DNA from: Eledone cirrhosa
Taxonomy: Eukaryota
Reading direction: 5' to 3'
Assembly: GCA_964016885.1 (NCBI GenBank)
Contig: OZ024742.1
Span: 344,286,001-344,350,000, forward strand
DNA: 64,000 nt
The translations under genes were made by a program, and so were the position numbers. The notes beneath the pieces were generated by a model that saw only the letters and a program-made list of their open reading frames with translations, had not been told where the DNA came from and made no database searches. Below, in pieces: positions 6,500 to 60,450 of the stretch (positions are counted from its first letter, which is position 1; each line of letters opens with the position of its first letter).

Positions 6500-8397
6500 C
6501 ACGGGGCGAACTCCTCGCTCTCCGCTCCCTCCGTAGCCGAGATGACATCGTCATCAAACCGGCGGACAAGGGAGGCGCCGTAGTGGTGTGGCGCGCGGAC
6601 CTCTACACGGCCGAAGCCCTCAGGCAGCTCTGTAACCCCCTCTTCTACCGCCCTCTACCCTCAGATCCCACCCCCCTCTACCAACACAAGTCTCCTCCAC
6701 CATCAAAGACCTTATCGCCTCCTCCCTCCTCCCCCCACCGCTTCCCACCTCATCGTCCGCACCCCCCGCACCCCCACCATCTACTTCCTCCCCAAACTCC
6801 ACAAACCCGACAACCCCGGCCGCCCCATCGTCTCCGCTTGCAACTGCCCCACCGAACTCATCTCCGCCTTTCTCGACTCCATCCTCGCCCCCCTTGTCAC
6901 CACCCTCCCCTCCCACATCTCCGACACCAACCACGCCCTGCGCCTTTTCGACTCCTTCACCTACCCACCCGGCCCACAGCCCTTCCTCTTCACCCTAGAC
7001 ATCAAGTCCCTCTATATCGTCATCCCCCACGCCGACGGCCTACGTGCCCTCAAACACTACCTCGACCTTCGCCCCTCCCCCATTCCCTCCACCCCCACCC
7101 TCCTTCGCCTCGGCGAGCTGGTCCTCACCCTAAATTGTTTCTCCTTCTCGGGTGAGTTTTACCAACAGGTCACGGGGGTAGCCATGGGTACAAGAATGGG
7201 CCCGAACTATGCCAACCTTTTTGTTGGCCATGTTGAGGCCCAAATCTTTGCCCAGTACACCGGCCCCACGCCCGAACTGTACGGTCGTTACATTGACGAC
7301 TGTATCGGAGCCACGACCCTCACCCGAGAACAGCTCGACTCCTTTCTCTCCTTCTTCTGCTCCTTCCACCCCTCCCTCCACTTCACCACCTCTATCTCCA
7401 CCACCCACGTCCACTTCTTAGACATCTCCGTCGCCTTCGACCCCTCCCACCACTCCCTCGTCACCTCCGCCTTCTTCAAACCCACCGACTCCCACTCTTA
7501 CCTCGACTTCACCTCTTCCCACCCCACCCACACTAAACACTCCATTCCCTACTCCCAACTTCTCAGGATCCGCCGCCTCTGTAGCCGAGATGCTGACTTC
7601 GAGTCCCAGGCCCTTTCCCTAGTCAGCCATTTCATCCGCAGAGGTTACCCCCACTCTCTCTCTCGTCCACACCGCTCTCACCCGCGCCCGTGCTGTCCCC
7701 CGCTCCACCACCCTCACCCCACGCCACCGTACACCCACCCACCGTCTCCCCTTCCCTATCACCTACCACCCCTCCACCTTACTCCTCCACCGCACCATCC
7801 GCCGCCTCTTCCGACGCCTCCAGTTCGACCCCTCCACCTCCCACATCTTCCCAATCCCACCACTCCCCTCCTTCAAACGCGCACGCAATCTCCGCACCCT
7901 CCTCGTCCACAGCTCCCTACCCCCCAACCCACGCTTTGTTCCCTCCCTCGGTTCCTTTCCCTGTTCTAGGCCCCGCTGCAACACCTGTCCCCACATCACC
8001 AACACCACCACCTTCCAGGGTCACAACGGCCACTCTCTCTCTGTCCGGCATGCCTTCCGCTGCACCTCCTCCAACCTAGTCTACGTCTCCAACCGACGTC
8101 CCGTCTGTCCGACATAAGTCGCGCTGCACAGAGTGCAGCGCGACTTATGTCGGACAGACGGGACGTCGCCTGGCGGACCGATTCACTGAGCACCTCCGGG
8201 ATATTCGTCTCGGTGGTAGTTCCCCAATCGCCCGCCACTTTGGTGGCCCTGGACATTCCGCACGCCATCTCACAGTCTGTGGCCTACTCCAATGCCACGG
8301 AACACCCGCCAATCGCCTTAGAGTCGAACAAAGAACTATCTTCATCTTACAGACCCACACTCCTCCCGGCCTGAACTCCCCACCCTTATTCCTTTAG
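6500..8397 (+). pseudogene. PLE RT/GIY-YIG ORF, disrupted
   Basis: Motifs as above are spread over several frames (ORFs 6583.. and 7184.. plus unlisted frames); an inverted duplication lies inside the endonuclease. Confidence 0.9.
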
Positions 8398-12011: not shown

Positions 12012-12896
12012 CTATATATTGGGCTTAAAGTTTTGGAAGGAATGTCTGAAGCGGTGCTGGCAAGTTGCAAACACCTCAGATTTTTTGTTAAGTAGGTTCC
12101 GGTTGGAGAAGATAATATTGTGTGTCTCTAGTATACAGAGGTTACAAAATTTATTAGGTGGTTTGTACGAGGTCGCGCTGCCTATCACTTCCCATTTGAG
12201 TGTGTATGGTTTATTTTTAGTTTTTAGATAGTGTATGTAGCTAGAAAGTGAGGTGGAGTTGGCTAGGCTGTGCTTTTTGAACGAGTGGATGTGCGAATTA
12301 TATCTGATTTTGAAGCAGTTAGAAGTGGAGCCTACATAGGTTTCTGAAGAGTTGCTAGTCGTGACGGTGCATGAGTATATGATATCCTTGGTTAGGCATT
12401 TTTTATCTAAAGGGCAGGTTCTATTAGCTCTGCAGTTACAATTATCCTGTGCGTTAGTCTGCTGGTTGTAATGCAGTGCGGAAGTCCGTGTGGTAGCTAT
12501 AGGATTTTGGGCGTTCGGGTTGTCAACCCTGGTGTTATTACTTATACTAGTGTTATTTCTATTGTTACTGCCGTTGCTATGGTTGCTTGCTACAGAGGTA
12601 TTTAGAGGGTTTGCATCCTGTTGTGATTTTGTTTGTTGGAAGTAAGAATTAATTTTAATATTATTGCTGCTAGCTATGTGGTATGCTAAGTTAGGCGTCG
12701 TAGAGTATGAGATTTTAATGGTGTTTTTGTTTAAGAGGTTGTGGTACTTGTGTCCTAGAGGGAAGTTTTTATCTAGTAGTGAGAAGAAAGCCCTAGGTAT
12801 GTTGGTGGAGACATTTAGGTTGAAAGGAGGGTTGAAAAATGTATTATTTCTTCTTCTATTTTTGCTTTTAGTGTTTGGTGTGTTGCTTCTTCCCAA
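12012..12896 (-). mobile_element. PLE C-terminal ORF fragment (RT thumb/linker + GIY-YIG endonuclease), possibly Hydra-clade; 5'-truncated
   Basis: FFNPPF...KISYSTTPNL, CNCR..TCPL..KC, IIY...YVGST..FKIRYNSH, CNLCILE, LLNKKSEVFATCQH; open for 294 aa. Confidence 0.85.
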
Positions 12897-15842: not shown

Positions 15843-16839
15843 TATATGTATTCTTGTATTCGTTCAATGTATATACTCCCACTTAATTTAACCTTTTTCT
15901 GTAAACTACAAGAGGGACATAAAACAACTTTTGTTAATTCAAATGATTATATTGTCTTCACTTTTGTACAGATCGTTGTGAAAATTTGCAATATTAATGA
16001 AAATAATTCAATTCTTCAGGAAATAAAATAAACAGTGTTTTGTACTCGTCAATGATGCTTCCTTAATGTGGTTTCATTTGGTTGAGGATGTTCAGAGATA
16101 ATCAGAGACGAGTCACGATTGAATATACAACCAGAGCTAATTACAAAATAATTACAGTATTTGCTTAGTTAATTAGATACACATTAGATAGATGCAAGCG
16201 CTCCCCAACACTTACTCCGAAACATTGATTCTTTTCCTACTATATCAAGCGTTAACTAATATATTTATTTCATCATTGTACTATATTGTTTTCTCGCGTT
16301 GTTTTCCTTATTGACTGTTCATACATACACAATCACGGACACGCACACATACACCCGCGGCACACACATACACACACACTCACACACACACACACATACA
16401 CACACACACATATATATATATATATGCATATATATATGTATATACACACATATATGTGTGTGAGCGTGTGTATGTGTGTGTGTGTCCGTGTAAGTGTACG
16501 TGCGTGTGTGTATATGTGTGTGTCCATGTAAGGATGTGTGTGTCCATGTATGTGTGAGTGCGTGTATGTGTATGTGTAAGTGCGTGTATGTGTATGTGTG
16601 AGTGCGTGTATGTGTGTGTGAAAGACAGATAGAGGAGAATTACATTCGCGAATTAATTGAAATAAATGAATAAATGAATAAAACTAGGAACAATATATTG
16701 TTTTCTAAGCTCTTTATATATAAGACACCTATAAGAAGATGGTACGGATGAAGTGGTGCAGTCAGTGAAGTCAGCATCGCAGGTGAGATGGGAAAACTTT
16801 TTATGGTATAGTGGGATATGTGACTTACGGAACACTTAG

Positions 16840-19800
16840 CAGGGCACTAAATAGCCCTATGTACTCCCGCTATGTAGATGACATCAATATAGTAGTAACG
16901 TTTTGCAGGACACTAAATAGCCCTATGTACTCCTGCTATGTAGATGACATCAATACAGTAGTAAAGATAGTTTCAGGGCACTAAATAGCCCTATGTACCC
17001 CCGCTATGTAGATGACATCAATATAGTAGTAAAGTTAGTTTCAGGGCACTAAACAGCCCTATGTACCCCAGCTATGTAGATGACATCAATATAGTAGTAA
17101 AGTTAGTTTTAGGGCACTAAATAGCACGATGTACCCCCTGCTACGTAGATGACATAAATATAGTAGTAAAGTTAGTTTCAGGGCACTAAATAGCCTTATG
17201 TACCCCCCGCTATGTAGATGACATCAATATTTTAGTAAAGTTAGTTTCAGGGCACTTAATAGCCCTATGTTCCCTTGCTATGTAGATGACATCAATATAT
17301 TAGTAAAGTTAGTTTCAGGGCACTAAATAGCCCTATGTACCCCTTGCTATGTAGATGACATCAATATATTAGTAAAGTTAGTTTCAGGGCACTAAATAGC
17401 CCTATGTACCCCCTGCTATGTAGATGACATAAATATAGTAGTAAAGTTAGTTTCAGGGCACTAAATAGCCCTATGTACCCTCGTTAAGTAGATGACATCA
17501 ATATAGTAGTACAGTTAGTTTCAGGGCACAAAATAGTCCTATGTACCCCCGCTATGTAGATGACATCAATATATTAGTAAAGTTAGTTTCAGGGCACTAA
17601 ATAGCCCTATGTAGCCCCCCCCCCCTCCCACCCCGCTATGTAGATGACATCATTATAGTAGTAAAGTTAGTTACAGGGCACAAAATAGCCCTATGTACCC
17701 CCGCTATGTAGATGACATCTATATAGTAGTAAAGTTAGTTTCAGGCCAATAAATAACCCTATTTACCCCCGCTATGTAGATGACATCAATATAGGAGTAA
17801 AGTGAGTTTCAGGACACTAAATAGCCTTATGTACCCTCGCTATGTAAATCACATCAATATATTAGTAAAGTTAGTTTCAGGGCACTAAATAGCCCTATGT
17901 ACGCTCGCTATGTAGATGACATCTATATAGTAGTAAAGTAGGTTTCAGGGCACTAAACAGCCCTATGTATCCTCGCTATGTAGATGACATCAATATATTA
18001 GTAAAGTTAGTTTCAGGGCACTAAATAACCCTGTGTACCCCTTGCTATATAGATGACATCAATATATTAGTAAATTTAGTTTCAGGGCACTAAATAGCCC
18101 TATGTACCCCCGCTATGTAGATGACATCAATATATTAGTAAAGTTAGTTTCAGGGCACTAAATAGCCCTATGTACCCTCGCTATGTAGATTACATCAATA
18201 TATCAGTAAAGTTAGTTTCAGGGCACTAAATAGCCCTATGTACCCCCGCTATGTAGATGACATCAATATATTAGTAAAGTTAGTTTCAGGGCACTAAATA
18301 GCCCTATGTACACCCTGCTATTTAGATGACATCAATATATTAGTAAAGTTAGTTTCAGGGCACTAAATAGTCCTATGTACCCCTGCTATTTAGATGACAT
18401 CAATATATTAGTAAAGTTAGTTTTAGAGCACTAAATAGCCCTATGTACCCCCGCTATGTAGATGACATCAATATAGTAGTAAAGTTAGTTTCAGGGCACT
18501 AAATAGCCCTATGTACCCCCGCTATGTAGATGACATCAATATATTAGTAAAGTTAGTTTCAGGGCACTAAATAGCCCTATGTACCCTCGCTCTGTAGATG
18601 ACAACCATATATTTGTAAAGTTAATTTCAGGGCACTAAATAGCCCTATGTACCCTCGCTAAGTAGATGACATCAATATAGTAGTAAAGTTAGTTTCAGGG
18701 CACTAAATAGCCCTATGTACCCTTGCTATGTAGATGACGTCAATATAGTAGTACTGTTAGTTTTCAGGGCACTAAATAGCCCTATGTACTCCCGCTATAT
18801 AGATGACATCAATATAGTAGTAAATTTACTTTCATGCCACTAAATAGCCCTATGTACCCCCCACCCGCTATGTAGATGACATCAATATATTAGTAAATTA
18901 CTTTCAGGGCACTAAATAGCCCTATGTAACCTCGCTATGTATATGACATCAATATAGTAGTAAAGTTAGTTTCTGGGCACTAAATAGCCCTATGTACCCT
19001 CGTTAAGTAGATGACATCAATATATTAGTAAAGTTAGTTTCAGGGCACAAAATAGCCCTATGTATCCCCGCTATGTAGATGACATCATTATAGTAGTAAA
19101 GTTAGTTACAGGGCACAAAATAGCCCTATGTACCCCCGCTATGTAGATGACATCTATATAGTAGTAAAGTTAGTTTCAGGCCAATAAATAACCCTATTTA
19201 CCCCCGCTATCTAGATGACATCAATATAGGAGTAAAGTGAGTTTCAGGACACTAAATAGCCTTATGTACCCTCGCTATGTAAATGACATCAATATATTAG
19301 TAAAGTTAGTTTCAGGGCACTAAATAGCCCTATGTACGCTCGCTATGTAGATGACATCTATATAGTAGTAAAATAGGTTTCAGGGCACTAAACAGCCCTA
19401 TGTACCCTCGCTATGTAGATGACATCAATATATTAGTAAAGTTAGTTTCAGGGCACTAAATAGCCTTATGTACCCCCGCTATGTAGATGACATCAATATA
19501 TTAGTAAAGTTAGTTTCAGGGCACTAAATAGCCCTATGTACCCTCGCTATGTAGATTACATCAATATATCAGTAAAGTTAGTTTCAGGGCACTAAATAGC
19601 CCTATGTACCCCCGCTATGTAGATGACATCAATATAGTAGTAAAGTTAGTTTCAGAGCACTAAATAGCCCTATGTACCCCCTGCTATTTAGATGACATCA
19701 ATATATTAGTAAAGTTAGTTTCAGGGCACTAAATAGTCCTATGTACCCCTGCTATTTAGATGACATCAATATATTAGTAAAGTTAGTTTCAGGGCACAAA

Positions 19801-22756
19801 ATAGCCCTATGTATCCCCGCTATGTAGATGACATCATTATAGTAGTAAAGTTAGTTACAGGGCACAAAATAGCCCTATGTACCCCCGCTATGTAGATGAC
19901 ATCTATATAGTAGTAAAGTTAGTTTCAGGCCAATAAATAACCCTATTTACCCCCGATATGTAGATGACATCAATATAGGAGTAAAGTGAGTTTCAGGACA
20001 CTAAATAGCCTTATGTACCCTCGCTATGTAAATGACATCAATATATTAGTAAAGTTAGTTTCAGGGCACTAAATAGCCCTATGTACGCTCGCTATGTAGA
20101 TGACATCTATATAGTAGTAAAGTAGGTTTCAGGGCACTAAACAGCCCTATGTACCCTCGCTATGTAGATGACATCAATATATTAGTAAAGTTAGTTTCAG
20201 GGCACTAAATAACCCTGTGTACCCCTTGCTATATAGATGACATCAATATATTAGTAAAGTTAGTTTCAGGGCACTAAATAGCCCTATGTACCCCCGCTAT
20301 GTAGATGACATCAATATATTAGTAAAGTTAGTTTCAGGGCACTAAATAGCCCTATGTACCCTCGCTATGTAGATTACATCAATATATCAGTAAAGTTAGT
20401 TTCAGGGCACTAAATAGCCCTATGTACCCCCTGCTATTTAGATGACATCAATATATTAGTAAAGTTAGTTTCAGGGCACTAAATAGTCCTATGTACCCCT
20501 GCTATTTAGATGACATCAATATATTAGTAAAGTTAGTTTCAGGGCACTAAATAGCCCTATGTACCCCCGCTATGTAGATGACATCAATATATTAGTAAAG
20601 TTAGTTTCAGGGCACTAAATAGCCCTATGTACCCTCGCTATGTAGATGACATCAATATATTAGTAAAGTTAGTTTCAGAGCACTAAATAGCCCTATGTAC
20701 CCCCGCTATGTAGATGACATCAATATAGTAGTAAAGTTAGTTTCAGGGCACTAAATAGCCCTATGTACCCCCGCTATGTAGATGACATCAATATATTAGT
20801 AAAGTTAGTTTCAGGGCACTAAATAGCCCTATATACCCTTGCTATGTAGATGACGTCAATATAGTAGTACTGTTAGTTTTCAGGGCACTAAATAGCCCTA
20901 TGTACTCCCGCTATGTAGATGACATCAATATAGTAGTAAATTTACTTTCATGCCACTAAATAGCCCTATGTACCCCCCACCCGCTATGTAGATGACATCA
21001 ATATATTAGTAAATTAGTTTCAGGGCACTAAATGGCCCTATGTAACCTCGCTATGTATATGACATCAATATAGTAGTAATGTTAGTTTCAGGGCACTAAA
21101 TAGCCCTCTGTACCCCCCGCTATGTAGATGACATCAATATAGTAGTAAATTTAGTTTCAGGGCACTAAATAGCCCTATGTACCTCCCGCTATGTAGATGA
21201 CATCAATATAGTAGTAAAGTTAGTTTCAGGGCACTAAATAGCCCTCTGTACCCCCCGCTATGTAGATGACATCAATATAGCAGTAAATTTAGTTTCAGAG
21301 CACTAAATAGCCCTATGTACCTCCCGCTATGTAGATGACATCAATATAGTAGTAAATTAGTTTCAGGGCACTAAATAGCCCTATGTACCCCCGCTATGTA
21401 GATGACATCAATATATTAGTAAAGTTAGTTTCAGGGCACTAAATAGCCCTATGTACCCTCGCTATGTAGATTACATCAATATATCAGTAAAGTTAGTTTC
21501 AGGGCACTAAATAGCCCTATGTAACCCCTGCTATTTAGATGACATCAATATATTAGTAAAGTTAGTTTCAGGGCACTAAATAGTCCTATGTACCCCTGCT
21601 ATTTAGATGACATCAATATATTAGTAAAGTTAGTTTCAGAGCACTAAATAGCCCTATGTACCCCCGCTATGTAGATGACATCAATATATTAGTAAAGTTA
21701 GTTTCAGGACACTAAATAGCCCTATGTACCCTTGCTATGTAGATGACGTCAATATAGTAGTACTGTTACTTTTCAGGGCACTAAATAGCCCTATGTACTC
21801 CCGCTATGTAGATGACAACAATATAGTAGTAAATTTACTTTCATGCCACTAAATAGCCCTATGTACCCCCCACCCGCTATGTAGATGACATCAATATATT
21901 AGTAAATTAGTTTCAGGGCACTAAATAGCCCTATGTAACCTCGCTATGTATATGACATCAATATAGTAGTAAAGTTAGTTTCTGGGCACTAAATAGCCCT
22001 ATGTATCCCCCCTATGTAGATGACATCAATATAGTAGTAATGTTAGTTTCAGGGCACTAAATAGCCCTATGTACCCCCGCTATGTAGATGACATCAATAT
22101 AGTAGCAAATTAGTTTCAGGGCACTAAATAGCCCTATGTACCCCCGCTATGTAGATGACATCAATATAGTAGTAAAGTTAGTTTCAGGGCACTAAATAGC
22201 CCTCTGTACCCCCCGCTATGTAGATGACATCAATATAGTAGTAAATTTAGTTTCAGGGCACTAAATAGCCCTATGTACCTCCCGCTATGTATTTGACATC
22301 AATATAGTAGTAAAGTTAGTTTCAGGGCACTAAATAGCCCTCTGTACCCCCAGCTATGTAGATGACATCAATATAGTAGTAAATTTAGTTTCAGGGCACT
22401 AAATAGCCCTATGTACCTCCCGCTATATAGATGACATCAATATAGTAGTAAAGTTAGTTTCAGGGCACTAAATAGCCCTATGTACCCCCGCTATGTAGAT
22501 GACATCAATATAGTAGTAAATTTAGTTTCAGGGCACTAAATAGCCCTATGTACCCTTGCTATGTAGATGACATCAATATAGTAGTAAAGTTAGTTTTCAG
22601 GGCACTAAATAGCCCTATGTACACCCGCTATGTAGATGACATCAATATAGTAGTAAAGTTACTTTCAGGCCACTAAATAGCCCTATGTATACCCCCACCC
22701 CACCCCCGCCACCCCGCTATGTAGATTACATCAATATATTAGTAAAGTTAGTTTCA
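16840..22756. repeat. Satellite array 1: 68-bp unit, ~87 copies
   Basis: Consensus cagggcactaaatagccctatgtacccccgctatgtagatgacatcaatatattagtaaagttagttt; variable poly-C tract. Confidence 0.98.
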
Positions 22757-22818
22757 TAGTAAAATACGTAGGGATTAGTGATACACACCAAGGAGACCAC
22801 CCAGATAATATCTGATGG

Positions 22819-24636
22819 CATCTACCAGAGAATTAACATAGAATACCTAACTATAGGCCTCAACCATAGACTACATCTACCAGAGAATTAACATAGAATA
22901 CCTAACTATAGGCTTCTGCCAGAGACTACATCTACCAGAGAATTAACATAGAATACCTAACTATAGGCTTCTGCCAGAGACTACATCTACCAGAGAATTA
23001 ACATAGAATACCTAACTATATGCCTCAACCACAGACTACATCTACCAGAGAATTAACATAGAATACCTAACTATAGGCTTCTGCCAGAGACTACATCTAC
23101 CAGAGAATTAACATAGAATACCTAACTATAGGCCTCAACCACAGACTACATCTACCAGAGAATTAACATAGAATACCTAGCTATAGGCCTCAACCACAAA
23201 CTACATCTACCAGAGAATTAACATAGAATACCTAACTATAGGCTTCTGCCAGAGACTACATCTACCAGAGAATTAACATAGAATACCTAACTATAGGCTT
23301 CTGCCAGAGACTACATCTACCAGAGAATTAACATAGAATACCTAACTATAGGCTTCTGCCAGAGACTACATCTACCAGAGAATTAACATAGAATACCTAA
23401 CTATATGCCTCAACCACAGACTACATCTACCAGAGAATTAACATAGAATACCTAACTATAGGCTTCTGCCAGAGACTACATCTACCAGAGAATTAACATA
23501 GAATACCTAACTATAGGCCTCAACCACAGACTACATCTACCAGAGAATTAACATAGAATACCTAACTATAGGCTTCTGCGAGAGACTACATCTACCAGAG
23601 ACTTAACATAGAATACCTAACTATAGGCTTCTGCCAGAGACTACATCTACCAGAGAATTAACATAGAATACCTAGCTATAGGCCTCAACCACAAACTACA
23701 TCTACCAGAGAATTAACATAGAATACCTAACTATAGGCTTCTGCCAGAGACTACATCTACCAGAGAATTAACATAGAATACCTAACTATAGGCTTCTGCC
23801 AGAGACTACATCTACCAGAGAATTAACATAGAATACCTAACTATAGGCTTCTGCCAGAGACTACATCTACCAGAGAATTAACATAGAATACCTAGCTATA
23901 GGCCTCAACCACAAACTACATCTACCAGAGAATTAACATAGAATACCTAACTATAGGCTTCTGCCAGAGACTACATCTACCAGAGAATTAACATAGAATA
24001 CCTAACTATAGGCTTCTGCCAGAGACTACATCTACCAGAGAATTAACATAGAATACCTAGCTATAGGCCTCAACCACAAACTACATCTACCAGAGAATTA
24101 ACATAGAATACCTAACTATAGGCTTCTGCCAGAGACTACATCTACCAGAGAATTAACATAGAATACCTAACTATAGGCTTCTGCCAGAGACTACATCTAC
24201 CAGAGAATTAACATAGAATACCTAACTATAGGCTTCTGCCAGAGACTACATCTACCAGAGAATTAACATAGAATACCTAGCTATAGGCCTCAACCACAAA
24301 CTACATCTACCAGAGAATTAACATAGAATACCTAACTATAGGCTTCTGCCAGAGACTACATCTACCAGAGAATTAACATAGAATACCTAACTATAGGCTT
24401 CTGCCAGAGACTACATCTACCAGAGAATTAACATAGAATACCTAGCTATAGGCCTCAACCACAGACTACATCTACCAGAGAATTAACATAGAATACCTAA
24501 CTATAGGCTTCTGCCAGAGACTACATCTACCAGAGAATTAACATAGAATACCTAACTATAGGCTTCTGCCAGAGACTACATCTACCAGAGAATTAACATA
24601 GAATACCTAGCTATAGGCCTCAACCACAAACTACAT
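22819..24636. repeat. Satellite array 2: 55-bp unit, 33 copies, two main variants
   Basis: atctaccagagaattaacatagaatacctaactata followed by either ggcttctgccagagactac or ggcctcaaccaca(g/a)actac. Confidence 0.98.
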
Positions 24637-24997
24637 GTCTTACATACAGAACTATGGTAACTAAAATAAAACAGTAAGGTACAATCTATCATTTCACATT
24701 ACACTAAACCCGTGGTCTCCAAACATTTGATGCTCTGAAGCTTAGCAATTTCGAACAACCTAAAAATCAATATGTTAACAGTGGATCTAATGAGGGCAGT
24801 GAAGAACGCGCCTCGCTTATACGAATCTAAAGAACTAGAGCAACACATAAAACACTTCTATCGTTTGTGTTTCTCCGGACACAATCAAAGGGATAGGATC
24901 AGAGTATACACAGGAGCGAAGGCAAAACTGAAAAATATCATGAAAAACGATGCTCATGGAGGATGCTTCATGAATAGGAGCAAAGCATGGGTGAAGG

Positions 24998-25225
24998 CAC
25001 ATGGCTTAGTGGTTAGAGCATTGGGCTTGCAACCGAAAGGTTGTGAGTTCAATTCCCGGACGGGTGATGTGTTGTTTCCTTGAGCAAGACACTTTATTTC
25101 ACGTTGCTCTAGTGTAGAAATGAGATGATAGGACTGGGGTCCCTATCATTAAAATCATCCAAGACACCTCCAACGAGATATACCTCGGAGGAGGCCAGCT
25201 AAACCTGCATAGGTGTGAGCTGTCA
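24998..25225 (+). mobile_element. tRNA/CORE-type SINE, family B
   Basis: A-box tggcttagtggt, B-box gagttcaattcc, then ccttgagcaagacactttatttcacgttgctc. Confidence 0.8.
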
Positions 25226-25574
25226 CACACACACAAACACACATGGGACGGATTAGAAAGAATAAGGAAGAAGGTAGATAAGGTCAGCTCATTCTATGGT
25301 AAGATGATTATCGGAGTTTGATGTTCATTGATGCTACATCCTGAGATGAACTAGCTTATAGATTTAGGAATGCAACGTCATCAGTTTCAACATTCATAAC
25401 TGAAGGCTTTCAAAATGTTTATTTCAAAACATCCCGTATATCGTTAGATATACAAGATACTCATACAGCTATGTTAGAGCAAACACCTTAATAACAATAT
25501 ATATTTCAACATATGATTCCACATCAAGTACCTAGTGAAATAAATACAACCAGTAAGTACATACTACATATGTA

Positions 25575-26616
25575 TACACACCTGGTGATATTTACTCCGG
25601 TTTTATTGTTAGTTAAGTAACTAATATATTTCTCGCTTAGTTATGCTTATTTCATTGTTTTTCGTCACACATTCTGTTTAAATGATTTAAGTACAGAGAA
25701 AATAAATAAACTAATCCCGCCCACGTTTTGTGTCACTGTATATTCATTTTCTAACTGATCAACCTTAAATTTCAGGAAATTGCAAATACAACGTCTGTGA
25801 AGACATCAAGAACCAAAATGCGAGCTCCAACATCAGATTCTTTCCGTGTGAAATACTATTATAATTGTTGCTCGTACAAGCAGGTCCAGGAACAATTTCA
25901 AAATTTTTGCGGGAACGGACAAATCTCCCTCCAAGGCCCAAACTGGGTAAAGAGGTTTGAGACATATCGAACAGTGAAGAACACAAATAAAATGTCTGAG
26001 GACCGTCCCATCAGCTGTGGAGGACCTGAAAGAATACACATGAAGCTACTAACATAGTCCGAGAGTCTATTGAGCAGTGCTCAAAACAATCGCTGCACAT
26101 GAGAAGCCCATCTTTGTGTCTCTCCAGAGAAATTTGCAGAAGTGTTTTCAAAGAGGATCTTAAGAAGAACACTTATAGAATACATGCAGAAAATCGTGTG
26201 ATCAGTTTCAAAACAGATTTTGATTGGGTCACACACAGCATTGATTTAAGCTACCCACCCTTAGACTTCTTTCTTTGGGGCGATATGAAGGATAGGGTAT
26301 ATGTCAAGAAACCCAGGACCATCCCTGAACTAAAGGAAATCGCCAGGGAGGAAATCAAGTCCATCGCTAGGTCTGTTTGTAAAGACATTACACTAAACTT
26401 CACCATGGGCCTAAAAAATGTGTGGATTCAAATGGAGATCAATTTGAGCAGGTGCTGAAACTCCGGACTAAAATATCAGAAGATAGTGAATTTTATAGAT
26501 ATATTTTTTAATGGTTTGACCGACGGATATTCGGAGTGTCGTCAGTTTTTTTTTGTCAAAAGAGGAGTAATTTAGTTAAAAACAAAAGTGGGGCCAGTTT
26601 TTTAGTTCACCCTGTA
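25575..26616 (+). mobile_element. Tc1/mariner-superfamily transposon remnant, internally deleted
   Basis: KYYY..SYKQVQEQF..WVKRFET (HTH-like) and W..HSIDLS.PLDFFLWG.MKDRVY..KPRTIPELK; 3' end tcaccctgTA; 5' end approximate. Confidence 0.8.
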
Positions 26617-27667: not shown

Positions 27668-28600
27668 TATGAAAAAGTTTGTCCTCTTCAGTGGCCATCC
27701 AACCGTCGTAGGCATTTCGTCGCATTAAAGGCCATATACCTCAGGTTGGTGCGAGCAACGGCTAAAAAAAAAGTCGTTGGGACACGTAAATAAAGGGGAC
27801 GCTAGGGTAAACAAACAAAATGGTTTAAGCAGCAGAAAGAGAGGAAGAAGGAAACAAGTCGCAGATTTCTATGAATATAAATTCGGTGGAATCGTCAACG
27901 AGAGAATAAAGACCATCAAAGCTGGTTGAAATGAGAGCAAGGAAGGAAATTCGCACAGGTCTAACGGGAGGAAGAAGGGGTCTGGTCTGCGAATTCGGTA
28001 AACATAAGTTCTGTGATGTCGCAGACGAGAGAGAGAGAGAAAAAAAATTCATACCGGCTTGGCCAAGTGCCCGCGAGAAAAGAATTGTGGACAGGTCAAA
28101 CGGGAAGAAAGGGGAGGAGGAGTGGTAGTGACAGAGAGTGAGTGAGTGAAAGGTGAGGAAGAGGCTAACAGAGAGAGACTGCTAGAAAGGGTAAAGACAC
28201 AAAGAACGAAACAGACTGGTGGCAGCGGAGGAAAAAATATATGTGTAAATATGATAATAATGGAGCTGCGGCGCTGCAAATGGGTTACATATGAAAAAGT
28301 TTGTCCTCATCAGTGGCCATCCAACCGTCGTAGGCATTTCGTCGCATTAAAGGCCATATACCTCAGGTTGGTGCGAGCAACGGCTAAAAAAAGTTCGTTG
28401 GGACACGTAAATAAAGGGGACGCTAGGGTAAACAAACAAAATGGTTTAAGCAGCAGAAAGAGAGGAAGAAGGAAACAAGTCCCAGATTTCTATGAATATA
28501 AATTCGGTGGAATCGTGAACGAGAGAATAAAGACCATCAAACCTGGTTGAAATGTGAGCAAGGAAGGAATTTCGCACAGGTCTAACGGGAGGAAGAAGGG
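27668..28600 (-). repeat. Partial tandem duplication (~312 bp at 27668-27980 and 28289-28600), pseudo-LTR-like
   Basis: Near-identical direct repeats 621 bp apart; truncated CTGA(A/T)GAGGAC on the minus strand. Confidence 0.8.
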
Positions 28601-29654: not shown

Positions 29655-30673
29655 TGGTAGTGGTGGTGGTGCTGGAGGGAGTGATGGTAGTGGTGGTGGT
29701 GGAGGGAGTGATGGTAGTGGTGGTGGTGGTGGAGGGAGTGATGGTAGTGGTGGTGGAGGGAGTGATTGTAGTGGTGGTCGTGCTGGAGGGAGTGATGGTA
29801 GTAGTGGTGGTGGTGGTGGAGGGAGTGATGGTAGTGGTGGTGGTGGAAGGAGTGGTGGTGGTGGAGGGAGTGATGGTAGTGGTGGTGGTGGTGCTGGAGG
29901 GAGTGATGGTAGTGGTGGTGGTGGAGGGAGTGATGGTAGTGGTGGTGGTGGTGGAGGGAGTGGTGGTAGTGGTGGTGTGTGGTGGAGGGAGTGATGGTAG
30001 TGGTGGTGGTGGTGGAGGGAGTGATGGTAGTGGTGGTGGTGGTGGTGGGAGTGATGGTAGTAGTGGTGGTGGTGGAGGGAGTGATGGTAGTAGCGGTGGT
30101 GGTGGAGGGAGTGATGGTAGTGGTGGTGGTGGTGATGGAGGGAGTGATGGTAGTGGTGGTGGTGGTGGAGGGAGTGATGGTAGTGGTGGTGGTGGTGGTG
30201 GGAGTGATGGTAGTAGTGGTGGTGGTGGAGGGAGTGATGGTAGTAGCGGTGGTGGTGGAGGGAGTGATGGTAGTGGTGGTGGTGGTGATGGAGGGAGTGA
30301 TGGTAGTGGTGGTGGTGGTGGAGGGAGTGATGGTAGTGGTGGTGGTGGTGGTGGGAGTGATGGTAGTAGTGGTGGTGGTGGAGGGAGTGATGGTAGTAGC
30401 GGTGGTGGTGGAGGGAGTGATGGTAGTGGTGGTGGTGGTGATGGAGGGAGTGATGGTAGTGGTGGTGGTGGTGGAGGGAGTGATGGTAGTGGTGGTGGTG
30501 GTGGAGGGAGTGATGCTAGTGGTGGTGGTGGTGCTGGAGGGAGTGATGGTAGTGGTGGTGGTGGTGGAGTGGTGGTAGTAGTAGTGATGGTGCTGGAGGG
30601 AGTGATGGTAGTGGTGGTGGTGGTGGAGGGAGTGGTGGTAGTAGTAGTGGTGGTGGTGGTGGTGTGGTGGTAG
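29655..30673. repeat. GGT-rich minisatellite, unit ggagggagtgatggtagt(ggt)n
   Basis: ~24-30-bp units with higher-order repeats. Confidence 0.95.
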
Positions 30674-32971: not shown

Positions 32972-34136
32972 GTGTGTACATGTGTACATATGTGTGTACG
33001 TGTGTACGTATGTGTGTACGTGTGTACGTGTGTACGTATGTGTGTACGTGTGTACGTATGTGTGTACGTGTGTACGTATGTGTGTACGTGTGTACGTATG
33101 TATGTACGTGTGTATGTGTATACGTGTGTACGTATGTATGTACCTGTGTACGTATTATGTACGTGTGTATGTATGTATGTACGTGTGACCGTATGTATGT
33201 AGGTGTGTACGTATGTATGTACGTGTGTATGTGTGTACGTGTGTACGTATTATGTACGTGTGTATGTATGTATGTATGTACGTGTGTACGTATGTATGTA
33301 GGTGTGTACGTATGTATGTACGTGTGTATGTATGTGTGTACGTGTGAACGTATGTATGTAGGTGTGTACGTATGTATGTACGTGTGTACGTATGTATGTA
33401 GGTGTGTACTTATGTGTGTACGTGTGTATGTATGTGTGTACGTGTGTACGTATTATGTACGTGTGTACGTATGTATGTACGTGTGTACGCATGTATGTAC
33501 GTGTATATGTATGTATGTAGGTGTGTACGTATGTATGTACGTGTGTACGTATGTATGTACGTGTGTATGTATGTATGTACGTGTGTACGTATGTATGTAG
33601 GTGTGTACGTATGTGTGTACGTGTGTATGTATGTGTGTACTTGTGTACGTATGTGTGTACGTGTGTACGTATGTATGTACGTGTGTACGTATCTATGTAC
33701 GTATGTATGTATGTGTGTAGGTGTGTACGTATGTGTGCACGTGTGTACGTATGTGTGTACGTGTGTACGTATGTATGTAGGTGTGTACGCATGTGTGTAC
33801 ATGTGTACGTATGTATGTACGTGTGTACGTATGTATGTAGGCGTGTACGTATGTATGTACGTGTGTACGTATGTATGTACGTGTGTATGTATGTATGTAC
33901 GTGTGTACGTATTATGTACGTGTGTATGTATGTGTGTACGTGTGTACGTATGTGTGTACGTGTGTACGTATGTATGTATCTGTGTACGTATGTATGTATG
34001 TCTGTATGTATGTATGTAAGTGTGTAAATATGTGCGTACGTGTGTACGTATGTTTGTACGTGTGTATGTATGTATGTACGTGTGTATGTATGTGTGTATG
34101 TGTGTACGTATGTATGTACATGTGTACGTATGTACA
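32972..34136. repeat. Minisatellite of tgtacgtg/tgtacgta/tgta units
   Basis: Direct reading. Confidence 0.95.
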
Positions 34137-42149: not shown

Positions 42150-42685
42150 ACCCTCAGCAATCAGTAATCTGGTATCACATGAGAGTTATAAAAAAACGAT
42201 ATACAATGAAGTAACAATATAAAATCTATATACAAATAAGGAGGGAAATGAAATAAAGTAAATTTTTAAAAGGTTAATGCCCTAAAAGGATAAAAATGAA
42301 TTTGAAAAATTTATTTGCAATATTATATTTTCTGTTTAATTTTGGTTAGAGTTCGTTTATGTTTGTCGCCTCTGTAATTTGTCTGAGCATTGCATCTTTT
42401 ATGTGTGGATATAGTTTTTATCTCTATGTTCTCTAATGTGCCCCTATGTTCTATTTTGGCATGTTGGTGGAGTACTGATGAGTTTTTCCCATCCTGGAGT
42501 TCTCGCCAGTGTTCACTTATTCTTTCTTCTATGCTACGGACTGCTTCACCTATGTATGTTGTGTTTTTATTCCTACACTGTCCCTCAGTACATCTTATGC
42601 TACATATTACGTTTCTAGTCTTCAAGTTAGTTTTCGAGCTTAACTTGCAGACTATGTATTTTCTATCAGTGCAGTGCGTTCTTTG
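42150..42685 (-). mobile_element. PLE GIY-YIG endonuclease fragment
   Basis: NVICSIRC...YIGEAVRSIEERISEH...SVLHQH...H. Confidence 0.75.
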
Positions 42686-42996
42686 AAATGGATGTGTGAC
42701 GAAAGAGCTTTGACAATATATAAACAACCATCCGGTTATCGAACCAACCAACCAACCGGAAATTTATAATAAATTGAAGTGAAAACCAACAGGCGTATAT
42801 GTTTTTATTGACAGCATGACCTTGCCAATGTATAACAATATCTGTTTCAACACCCGTTTTCAGATAAGAAATCTTGCAAAACAAATTCAAAAACGAAATA
42901 TATATATATATATGGGATAACAAGTTATCGTTTTAAGTACTCCAGTTAGAGGTTGTGAGTACTCTGTATTATGGATAGTTTTAACGTACGGCGTTT

Positions 42997-58399: not shown

Positions 58400-60450
58400 C
58401 AAAGGACGGAAGAACTCATAAGAGTCAACGGCCATCCGAAAGTGTGTAAATATGTATATAGACATGCACCGCGCGGTTCAACCACTGGTTAGTGAAGGAC
58501 CCCTAGCCTTTGTCAGGGTATTCTTCTAGAAGGCAATTTATGAAACTTGGATAACTCCAACATATAACCTGAGGCTCAGTAGTTACCGAAGATGTTGACC
58601 TTTTCTTATTTTCGGGTTATAGCTTCTGTCGCTCAGAGAGTGGGATTGGCTCAGTGCACAGTCTTTCCTCACTTTAAAATATATCTTCACGCACAGGCAT
58701 TGCACGATAGAATTAATTAATAATTATTAATAATGGTATACCGTGCAATGGCCATACTCGATAACGAGGGGGCAGCCATCATGTATGTATGCATAGCTGT
58801 ACGCAGTGACGTATTGCTGGGGATGCGTGGAGTGAAGCTGCACTCCCAAAATAATTTTTGCTGGAAAATTTTGAATGTCTACACCCATATAAATTATAGA
58901 AGCAATGCGCATATGTATGTAAGATGCATGTATGGATGTATAGATGTATGGATGTATGGATGTATGGATGGATGTATAGATGTATGGATGTATGGATGTA
59001 TGGATGTATGGATGTATGGATGTATGGATGGATGGATGCACGTATGGATGTATGGATGTATGGATGTATAGATGTATGGATGTATGGATGTATGGATGTA
59101 TGGATGTATGTATGTATAGATGTATGGATGTATGGATGTATGGATGTATAGATGTATGGATGTATGGATGTATGGATGTATAGATGTATGGATGTATGGA
59201 TGTATGGATGGATGGATGTATGGATGTATGGATGTATAGATGTATGGATGTATAGATGTATGTATAGATGTATGGATGCATGGATGTATGGATGGATGGA
59301 TGCACGTATGGATGTATGGATGTATGGATGTATAGATGTATGGATGTATAGATGGATGTATAGATGTATGGATGCATGGATGTATGGATGGATGGATGCA
59401 CGTATGGATGTATGGATGTATAGATGTATGGATGTATGGATGTATGGATGTATGGATGTATAGATGTATGGATGTATGGATGTATGGATGTATAGATGTA
59501 TGGATGTATGGATGTATGGATGTATGGATGTATAGATGTATGGATGTATGGATGTATGGATGGATGTATAGATGTATGGATGCATGGATGTATGGATGGA
59601 TGGATGCACGTATGGATGTATGGATGTATGTATGGATGTATAGATGTATGGATGCATGTATGTATGTATGTATGGATGTATGGATGTATGGATGTATGTA
59701 TGTATGGATGTATGGATGTATGTATGTATGTATGGATGTATGGATGTATGTATGGATGTATGTATGTATGTATGGATGTATGTATGGATGGATGCATGTA
59801 TGTATATATATATGTCGGGTCACTCTTGAGTGCTACTGGTAACATGTAACTCAGTACAACCTGTCTCATGGTCGGGTCGTCGGCGACTAACCGGCAACCC
59901 CACCAAGTTTACTTGGTGAGGAGGGTGATTTTGGACACCCTGTAGGACAAAAAACAAAACCTGACAAAGGGCGGAAGAACTCATGATAGTCAACAGCCTA
60001 CCCAAAATATGTAAATATGTATATACATATGTATGTGTATGTATATATACATATGTATGTGTATGTATATATACATATGTATGTGTATGTATATGCGCGG
60101 GGACATAGAAATAATCAGGCTGGGTACCCGATCGCGCGGTTAAACCACTGGGAGTGAAGGACCCCTAGCCTTTGTCAGGGCATTCTTCTAGGAGAAGGCA
60201 ACTCAGGTAACTGGGATAACTCCAACATATAACCCGCGGCTCAGTAGTTACCGATGATGTTGACCTTTTCTTCTTTTCGGGTTATAGCTATTGTCGCTCA
60301 GAGAGTGAGATTGGCTCAGTGCACAGTCTTTCCTCACTTAAAAAAAAATATCTTCACGCACAGGCATTGCACGATAGAATTAATTAATAGTTATTAATCA
60401 TGGTATATCGTGAAATGGCCTTACTCGATAACGAGGGGGCAGCCATCATA
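58400..60450. repeat. Diverged direct repeat (58400-58782 and 59965-60448) flanking a minisatellite
   Basis: Shared ggaagaactcat..., gtgaaggacccctagcctttgtcaggg, gattggctcagtgcacagtctttcctcac and ctcgataacgagggggcagccatc. Confidence 0.8.
58925..59800. repeat. (TGGATGTA)n 8-bp minisatellite
   Basis: Direct reading. Confidence 0.95.

Follow-up and report, generated by a model that had tools for sequence, protein, structure and literature searches.

We analysed a window of 64,000 nucleotides from the genome of Eledone cirrhosa, lying at 344.29-344.35 Mb of the 378.9-Mb C3 in a 3.0-Gb assembly; coordinates are positions within this window unless they are preceded by C1 to C5 or by the number of a sampled locus (L). 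The window contains the relic of a reverse transcriptase (RT) gene of a Penelope-like element (PLE), in which ~632 bp of unique sequence are stretched over 8,243 bp by two tandem amplifications in place (Table 1). An earlier interpretation of this DNA, made from its letters and called here the sequence-only reading, had described about 0.6 kb of RT coding sequence inflated to 8.2 kb by two adjacent arrays that kept the gene collinear, and these sizes agree with ours. A short interspersed element (SINE)-like sequence interrupts the relic further downstream.

Table 1. Pieces of the PLE relic, with its two arrays and the element inserted in it (aa, amino acid positions in the reference open reading frame P0001; TRF, Tandem Repeats Finder).
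Feature	Position	Strand	Basis
Left RT remnant (motif B region, G..AG..G.LFM.WWD-like; 2 stops)	16748..16839	+	tblastn, profile, blastn
Array 1, 68 bp x 86, over the YVDD catalytic motif	16840..22756	+	TRF, anchoring on YVDD word
Unamplified RT spacer between both arrays, 61 bp, contains stops	22757..22817	+	collinear alignment to family
Array 2, 55 bp x 33, IYQ..NHRL region	22818..24632	+	TRF, anchoring
Right RT remnant (palm end and thumb: VL.TELW, SHY.KP; 3 stops)	24633..24990	+	tblastn, profile
Inserted SINE-like element, headed by a transfer RNA (tRNA) sequence	24991..25243	+	break of protein alignment at aa 332; flanks
Last relic piece, C-terminal RT part, aa 332-373+	25244..25386	+	tblastn, profile

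The non-repeated parts of the locus are all collinear with one open reading frame (ORF), and judged from its sequence the locus is a copy of the PLE family to which this ORF belongs. The reference, P0001, is a natural 534-aa ORF of the family (RT and GIY-YIG) from elsewhere in the genome. By tblastn its residues 114-134 and 148-167 match 16755-16817 and 16838-16897 (joint E 4e-6), residues 158-212 match 22715-22873 (E 2e-4), residues 198-332 match 24589-24990 (E 1e-32) and residues 332-373 match 25244-25368, all of them ordered on the plus strand between 16755 and 25368. With a family profile the left flank (profile positions 322-356, E 2e-4), unit 1 and the right flank (E 2e-28) again fall in this order, the spacer piece being under threshold. 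The left remnant is also 66-79% identical to family copies by blastn, and RT homology upstream of 16748 is doubtful. A Pfam search with the stop-free peptide of the right flank gave no match. At the DNA level 31 family loci were selected because they matched one piece, and in 20 of them all three are found, ordered and on one strand; among 60 copies taken in list order the left piece was matched in every one and all three pieces (E<=0.01) in two, both collinear. Protein, profile and DNA matches thus agree that both arrays lie inside one RT relic, as the sequence-only reading had proposed.

That reading ended the element at 24990. Its RT anatomy was right, but it missed the last RT piece, since the relic resumes beyond the SINE-like insert and reaches about 25,390. 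The insert, likely flanked by a CATGGG target-site duplication, has a weak tRNA match below the gathering score (~25002-25059), and matching sequence is present in 35 of the sampled loci. No linker or GIY-YIG domain was found after the last piece: what remains of the copy is 0.8 kb of its interior, lacking the linker, the endonuclease, any pseudo-long terminal repeat and the 3' end. A motif scan of the window gave no credible host exon.

The right flank leads to dispersed relatives in the genome (67-75% identity). One exact 17-mer of the family has 1,111 genomic occurrences against a single control match, so that the family has at least 1,111 copies. The closest named protein among 105 matches is a hypothetical protein of Octopus vulgaris (67%), pointing to an octopod as the likely host. 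YxDD is present in 45 of the 45 homologues, a CX2-5CxxC linker pattern in 41 and the motif B pattern in 35, and the RT is N-terminal to the YIG motif in all 22 that match this motif strictly. P0001 itself matches RVT_1 with an E of 0.002, below the curated cut-off, and GIY-YIG at aa 429-494 with 22.7 bits for a cut-off of 22.6; a Pfam GIY-YIG match is found in only two of the eight longer homologues, and a CCHH motif was read by eye in P0001. From these sequence features we assign the source family to the PLEs with a C-terminal endonuclease (EN+), of Neptune/Nematis architecture. We follow the definitions of these types (RT, CX4CxxC linker, GIY-YIG) in Craig et al. 2021 (PMC8557442). Partial tandems of PLEs repeat long parts of the 3' region, unlike the internal segments of 55-68 bp at this locus (PMC8557442). 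No hammerhead appeared among 127 Rfam matches at E<=0.5 in 14 loci, a search that minimal PLE hammerheads may escape and for which the relic has no 3' end to offer; the matches were microsatellite noise.

TRF called array 1 at 16840-22689, and anchoring on the YVDD word extended it to 22756. Its units measure ~68 bp (range 66-89), with spacings of 68 in 52 and of 69 in 22 of 85 cases, and a few contain expanded C runs. Among 85 whole units 63 are distinct, with a mean pairwise difference of 7.8%. The array repeats blocks of 11, 5 and 5 of its units 32, 21 and 16 units further on, and one such pair shows 4 differences over 330 bp; multi-unit duplications of this kind are the usual trace of unequal exchange. 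The units lack 4 bp relative to the family, whose own word at this place occurs in none of the 86. FMVWWD and MYSRY are 59 apart at the locus and in one other copy, whereas 70 of 78 family matches have a distance of 63. The junction carries the microhomology TTAG..CA. The TRF consensus translates as INIVVK, whereas the ILVK given in the sequence-only reading is real as a common variant; the translations quoted there are present in the sequence, one of them, at array 2, being out of frame.

Array 2, called by TRF at 22819-24636, consists after anchoring of units of exactly 55 bp. A 6-bp deletion relative to the family is present, with its context, in 33 of 33 units, and the distance from IHQ to NHRL is 42 in the array versus 48 in the main peak of the family. 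There are eight variants and two main types: the family-like type forms the first and last unit, the derived type 21 of the 33, and units differ on average by 5.2% in pairwise comparison. The junction microhomology is CAT. The word TIDY, placed earlier at the first unit, results from reading the NHRL codons out of frame, and it is NIEY that aligns with the TIDY of the family.

In neither array are the edge units more deviant than the inner ones; both have a GC content of 37-38% and a unit length that does not preserve the reading frame. Genome searches for the two monomers (at most one mismatch) found neither outside the locus: 70 of 70 matches for array 1 and 33 of 33 for array 2 lie inside it. 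In a satellite DNA family the monomer forms long arrays or occurs at several loci. The arrays, first described as satellites, are therefore single-locus minisatellites.

The relic was decayed before it was amplified. It has 9 stops in 262 codons. Among 2000 simulation runs under a simple neutral mutation model this count was reached in none at 4% divergence, in 0.1% at 8%, in 0.85% at 12% and in 4.5% at 16%. The three pieces differ from the column majority of the family by 23%, 29% and 32%, compared with a median of 9-13% for family members, and the differences fall 46/30/50 on the three codon positions. Since the units carry lesions specific to this copy, both duplications came after these lesions; and units only 5-8% apart, in a relic 23-32% from its family, place the amplification after the decay. 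With a rate of 0.0036 per million years borrowed from another octopus (PMC13282606), the age of the relic would come to tens of millions of years and that of the arrays to several times less, a rough estimate because arrays homogenise. All units being frameshifted, the position of array 1 over the active site, singled out earlier as special, is nothing special and is most likely due to chance; no tandem of the family active-site 15-mer was found elsewhere in the genome. The arrays yield no protein, and we expect neither a product nor a selected function for them.

Arrays were then counted in genome samples, a complex array being defined by units of at least 20 bp in at least four copies. In 72 evenly spaced 10-kb samples they occupy 67,635 of 720,000 bases (9.4%); they are found in 21 samples and exceed 1 kb in 10. 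In 20 samples of distal C3 (L226-L245, C3:330-378 Mb), drawn after the idea of a distal enrichment had arisen, they occupy 62,097 of 200,000 bases (31%), and five samples are filled end to end, with different units each time (20-51 bp). On C1-C4 array cover is 27% within 50 Mb of an end versus 3% further in. A 77-bp unit repeated ~1,020 times over 77.6 kb (C3:344198056-344275685, L207-L214) ends 10 kb before the window and 27 kb before array 1. Neighbouring arrays of 80 and 69 bp with related units occur at L132. At the edges of 30 sampled arrays tblastn with 45 family proteins and 421 crude ORFs revealed no link to the family. Of 24 other arrays, 7 have units with a match elsewhere in the 1.68 Mb compared, one of them only as low-complexity DNA; this count is a lower bound because the test missed the 55-bp unit itself.

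Further observations concern individual arrays. The 50-bp unit of L229, in distal C3, matches a dispersed repeat. Right after the 77.6-kb array lies a likely exon reading NSAVGFSSCAARIGSALSPFTLL, which we take to resemble an SLC22-type transporter. A 64-bp array extends over 26.7 kb and 750 bp beyond it lies a 41-bp array of more than 4 kb (C5:4024194-4050866, L063-L066), a 76-bp array covers 13.6 kb (C2:190957312-190970965, L068-L070), and arrays of 13, 24 and 78 bp abut each other directly before a possible splice acceptor (L067:5057-6158). A triple pattern of the YVDD 11-mer gave 284 matches against 79 in the control. Those found among the 100 matches listed are unrelated 13-, 64- and 76-bp arrays with flanks that are not PLE-like by eye, and the remainder comes mostly, perhaps not entirely, from the C5 array. 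Of further family words sought as tandems, one gave a single two-copy duplication, that of L143, and a third word gave two simple-repeat matches against 6 in the control.

Sister copies were examined in the same way. Arrays of at least 4 units in the coding part are present in 0 of 60 family copies, which represent 114 kb of coding-homologous DNA on C1, mostly in an array-poor region, and are younger copies. Duplications of 2-2.5 copies in or at the coding part occur in 7 of the 60, several being 100% identical, and L143 duplicates 53 bp (1471-1582) nearly at the site of array 2. Two-copy seeds are thus no rarity, and whether they expand greatly seems to depend on the region. Other family copies carry duplications in two to three copies at L153:2844-3012 (84 bp), L195:3249-3598 (174 bp) and L039:1823-1907 (32 bp).

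The locus is very probably a decayed fragment of a C-terminal-endonuclease PLE holding two in-place, single-locus minisatellites, whose growth likely took place long after the insertion, through slippage and unequal exchange in the host. The element would have inserted and then decayed neutrally, with stops, a frameshift and the SINE insertion. Each segment may next have been duplicated once, probably at the 2-4-bp microhomologies of its junction, and growth would have followed by unequal exchange between sisters or homologues and by conversion, favoured by the array-dense distal position on the chromosome. The same local instability probably made a second array more likely. A model of slippage followed by unequal exchange has been described (PMC6947457).

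Could the repeats date from insertion, as products of the element's own telomerase-related RT going repeatedly over short stretches of its RNA template? Telomerase RTs are the sister group of PLE RTs and PLEs insert as partial tandems (PMC8557442), retrotransposition may help to start tandem repeats according to Ahmed and Liang (PMC3389668), and an RT origin of two-copy seeds such as those of the 7 sister copies is conceivable. We nevertheless judge this origin very unlikely. Hardly any family copy has the lesions that all units share, and a close relative fit to have been a defective master did not turn up (best 79%). The small distance between units contrasts with the roughly 12% or more of neutral decay that the stop count needs, and most sampled arrays of the genome have no link to the PLE family. 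Maintenance by selection, for instance as chromatin or as a source of small RNA against the PLE family, has as little in its favour: 86 copies of the most conserved motif of the family would make a plausible antisense or PIWI-interacting RNA template. But the units have lost the reading frame and resemble family copies by only 85-93% over ~45 bp, the monomers are confined to the locus, and the region is dense in similarly built arrays of unrelated sequence; here too we see only a very small chance.

An assembly artefact, or arrays far shorter than assembled, is highly improbable in view of contigs derived from reads. Runs X1-X3, which provide them, belong to a single sample, the assembly itself may have been built from them, and among the contigs listed none spans the stretch. 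The 55-bp loop, seen in contigs of three runs, reaches ~15x the depth of the flank, slightly under the 19 units of the commonest type and the 33 units in total. Against an artefact, the joint stepping back 55 bp has a depth of 138 and 193, compared with 9.3 and 13 for the contig leading into the right flank, and the junction of array 2 with this flank is present in contigs of runs X1 and X2. The 68-bp unit appears in many variants with a summed depth of up to ~620, and 63 distinct units with ordered block duplications do not resemble a collapsed or looped assembly. The missing contig cover for the spacer (22760-22813) and for run X4 proves nothing either way. The contigs speak against an artefact but do not fix the lengths of the arrays.

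Growth in the host long after insertion, which we prefer, has several points against it. Its order and timing are inferred, since neither an orthologous unexpanded allele nor an outgroup was seen. Homogenisation could hide the true age of the arrays and, as the family copies compared are no more than 66-79% alike, a lost subfamily could account for some of the changes that look private. With 2-4 bp the microhomologies fall short of the 5-10 bp given in the Haber-Louis model (PMC6947457). On C1-C4 the trend with distance to the end is not significant (rank correlation, rho -0.17, p 0.22), and the p of 0.035 depends on a 50-Mb cut picked after viewing the data. The clustering test is weak: it counts 3 pairs where 0.42 are expected, and of these three one probably represents a single array and another consists of arrays with related units. 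If arrays arose independently, a second one no more than 150 bp from the first would have a chance of roughly 0.5%.

Other elements lie around the relic. A second, distant PLE relic with RT and endonuclease pieces (6764-8316, plus strand; 23% to P0001) sits in a strongly C-rich, G-poor stretch (GC skew ~-0.6). Two GIY-YIG endonuclease remnants of PLE type are on the minus strand, at 12063-12446 and 42313-42697. The latter, 68-81% identical to the source family, is a separate copy and not that of the relic, since it is on the opposite strand and closer to the family. Directly after the relic a decayed transposase-like frame with a WPPRSPDL-type motif region (25770-26470, plus strand) is presumably Tc1/mariner-like. 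Near-identical short coding-like stretches at 27843 and 28464 (plus strand, ~620 bp apart), found again 49 kb past the array region in the DNA to the right of the window, are probably a dispersed repeat. Microsatellite-derived arrays of ~1 kb lie at 29655-30656 (30 bp), 32972-34134 (20 bp) and 58913-59802 (8 bp).

Side-by-side arrays have human counterparts, and adjacent pairs such as MS31A/B are known. Armour et al. (1989) reportedly describe human minisatellites that adjoin further tandem repeats as well as dispersed ones. The arrays described here are similarly side by side in or near a dispersed repeat, whereas human variable-number tandem repeats are GC-rich. Transposable element (TE)-derived sequences make up 23% of human minisatellites, with 5,747 of 5,932 clusters at a single locus, and the known models cover 6% of the TE-derived cases (Ahmed and Liang 2012, PMC3389668). 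There also the starting point is the duplication of part of a TE copy, followed by local expansion, and the two arrays correspond to what that survey calls TE-derived minisatellites (head-to-tail units of 10-100 bp, at least 70% similar to a TE or inside one), although its filters (GC>=40%, identity>=95%) would leave both out. They differ in their source, a PLE RT coding sequence, in their 86 and 33 copies, against means of ~2.3-2.4 for Alu-derived ones, and in being two in one relic. Satellites from retrotransposon ORFs are known as well: HinfI of chicken (CR1 ORF2), PROsat and Pvc20 (L1 ORF2) and E900 of rye (gag) (PMC9659126). Their unit likewise comes from a retroelement coding region; unlike these satellite DNA families, the present arrays have not left the copy they came from and occur at one locus.

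The word "Penelope" has no occurrence in the available text of PMC9659126 and PMC6947457. Literature searches, with most subscription papers outside their scope, turned up no array within a PLE RT gene under Penelope-like elements and satellite DNA, and no account of such arrays or of an array-rich distal region under octopus or cephalopod tandem repeats; for adjacent human minisatellites they led to unrelated papers. The locus had been called unusual. As regards an array in the coding part of this family the word still fits, given the sister copies and these searches; with the array cover of the spaced and distal samples, neighbouring arrays elsewhere and published examples of the class (PMC3389668, PMC9659126), it is a pair of TE-derived single-locus minisatellites of a known class, and its rarity was overstated.

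The start of a minisatellite is poorly explained, and the value of this locus as a record is that its ancestral sequence is known from the family. The array-rich distal region is a more interesting lead than the locus itself. We raise, as a tentative idea that is less likely to be right than wrong, that distal chromosome arms are carpeted with giant locus-private minisatellites (units of 23-77 bp, lengths of up to 78 kb or more, roughly one third of the sampled distal C3), clustered locally, arising from any sequence and driven by a regional cis-acting instability, of which the PLE relic would be a rare readable case. If this were true, the pre-expansion sequence, the breakpoints and the order of mutations could be read from about a thousand sister copies, and the birth of a minisatellite would become directly testable.

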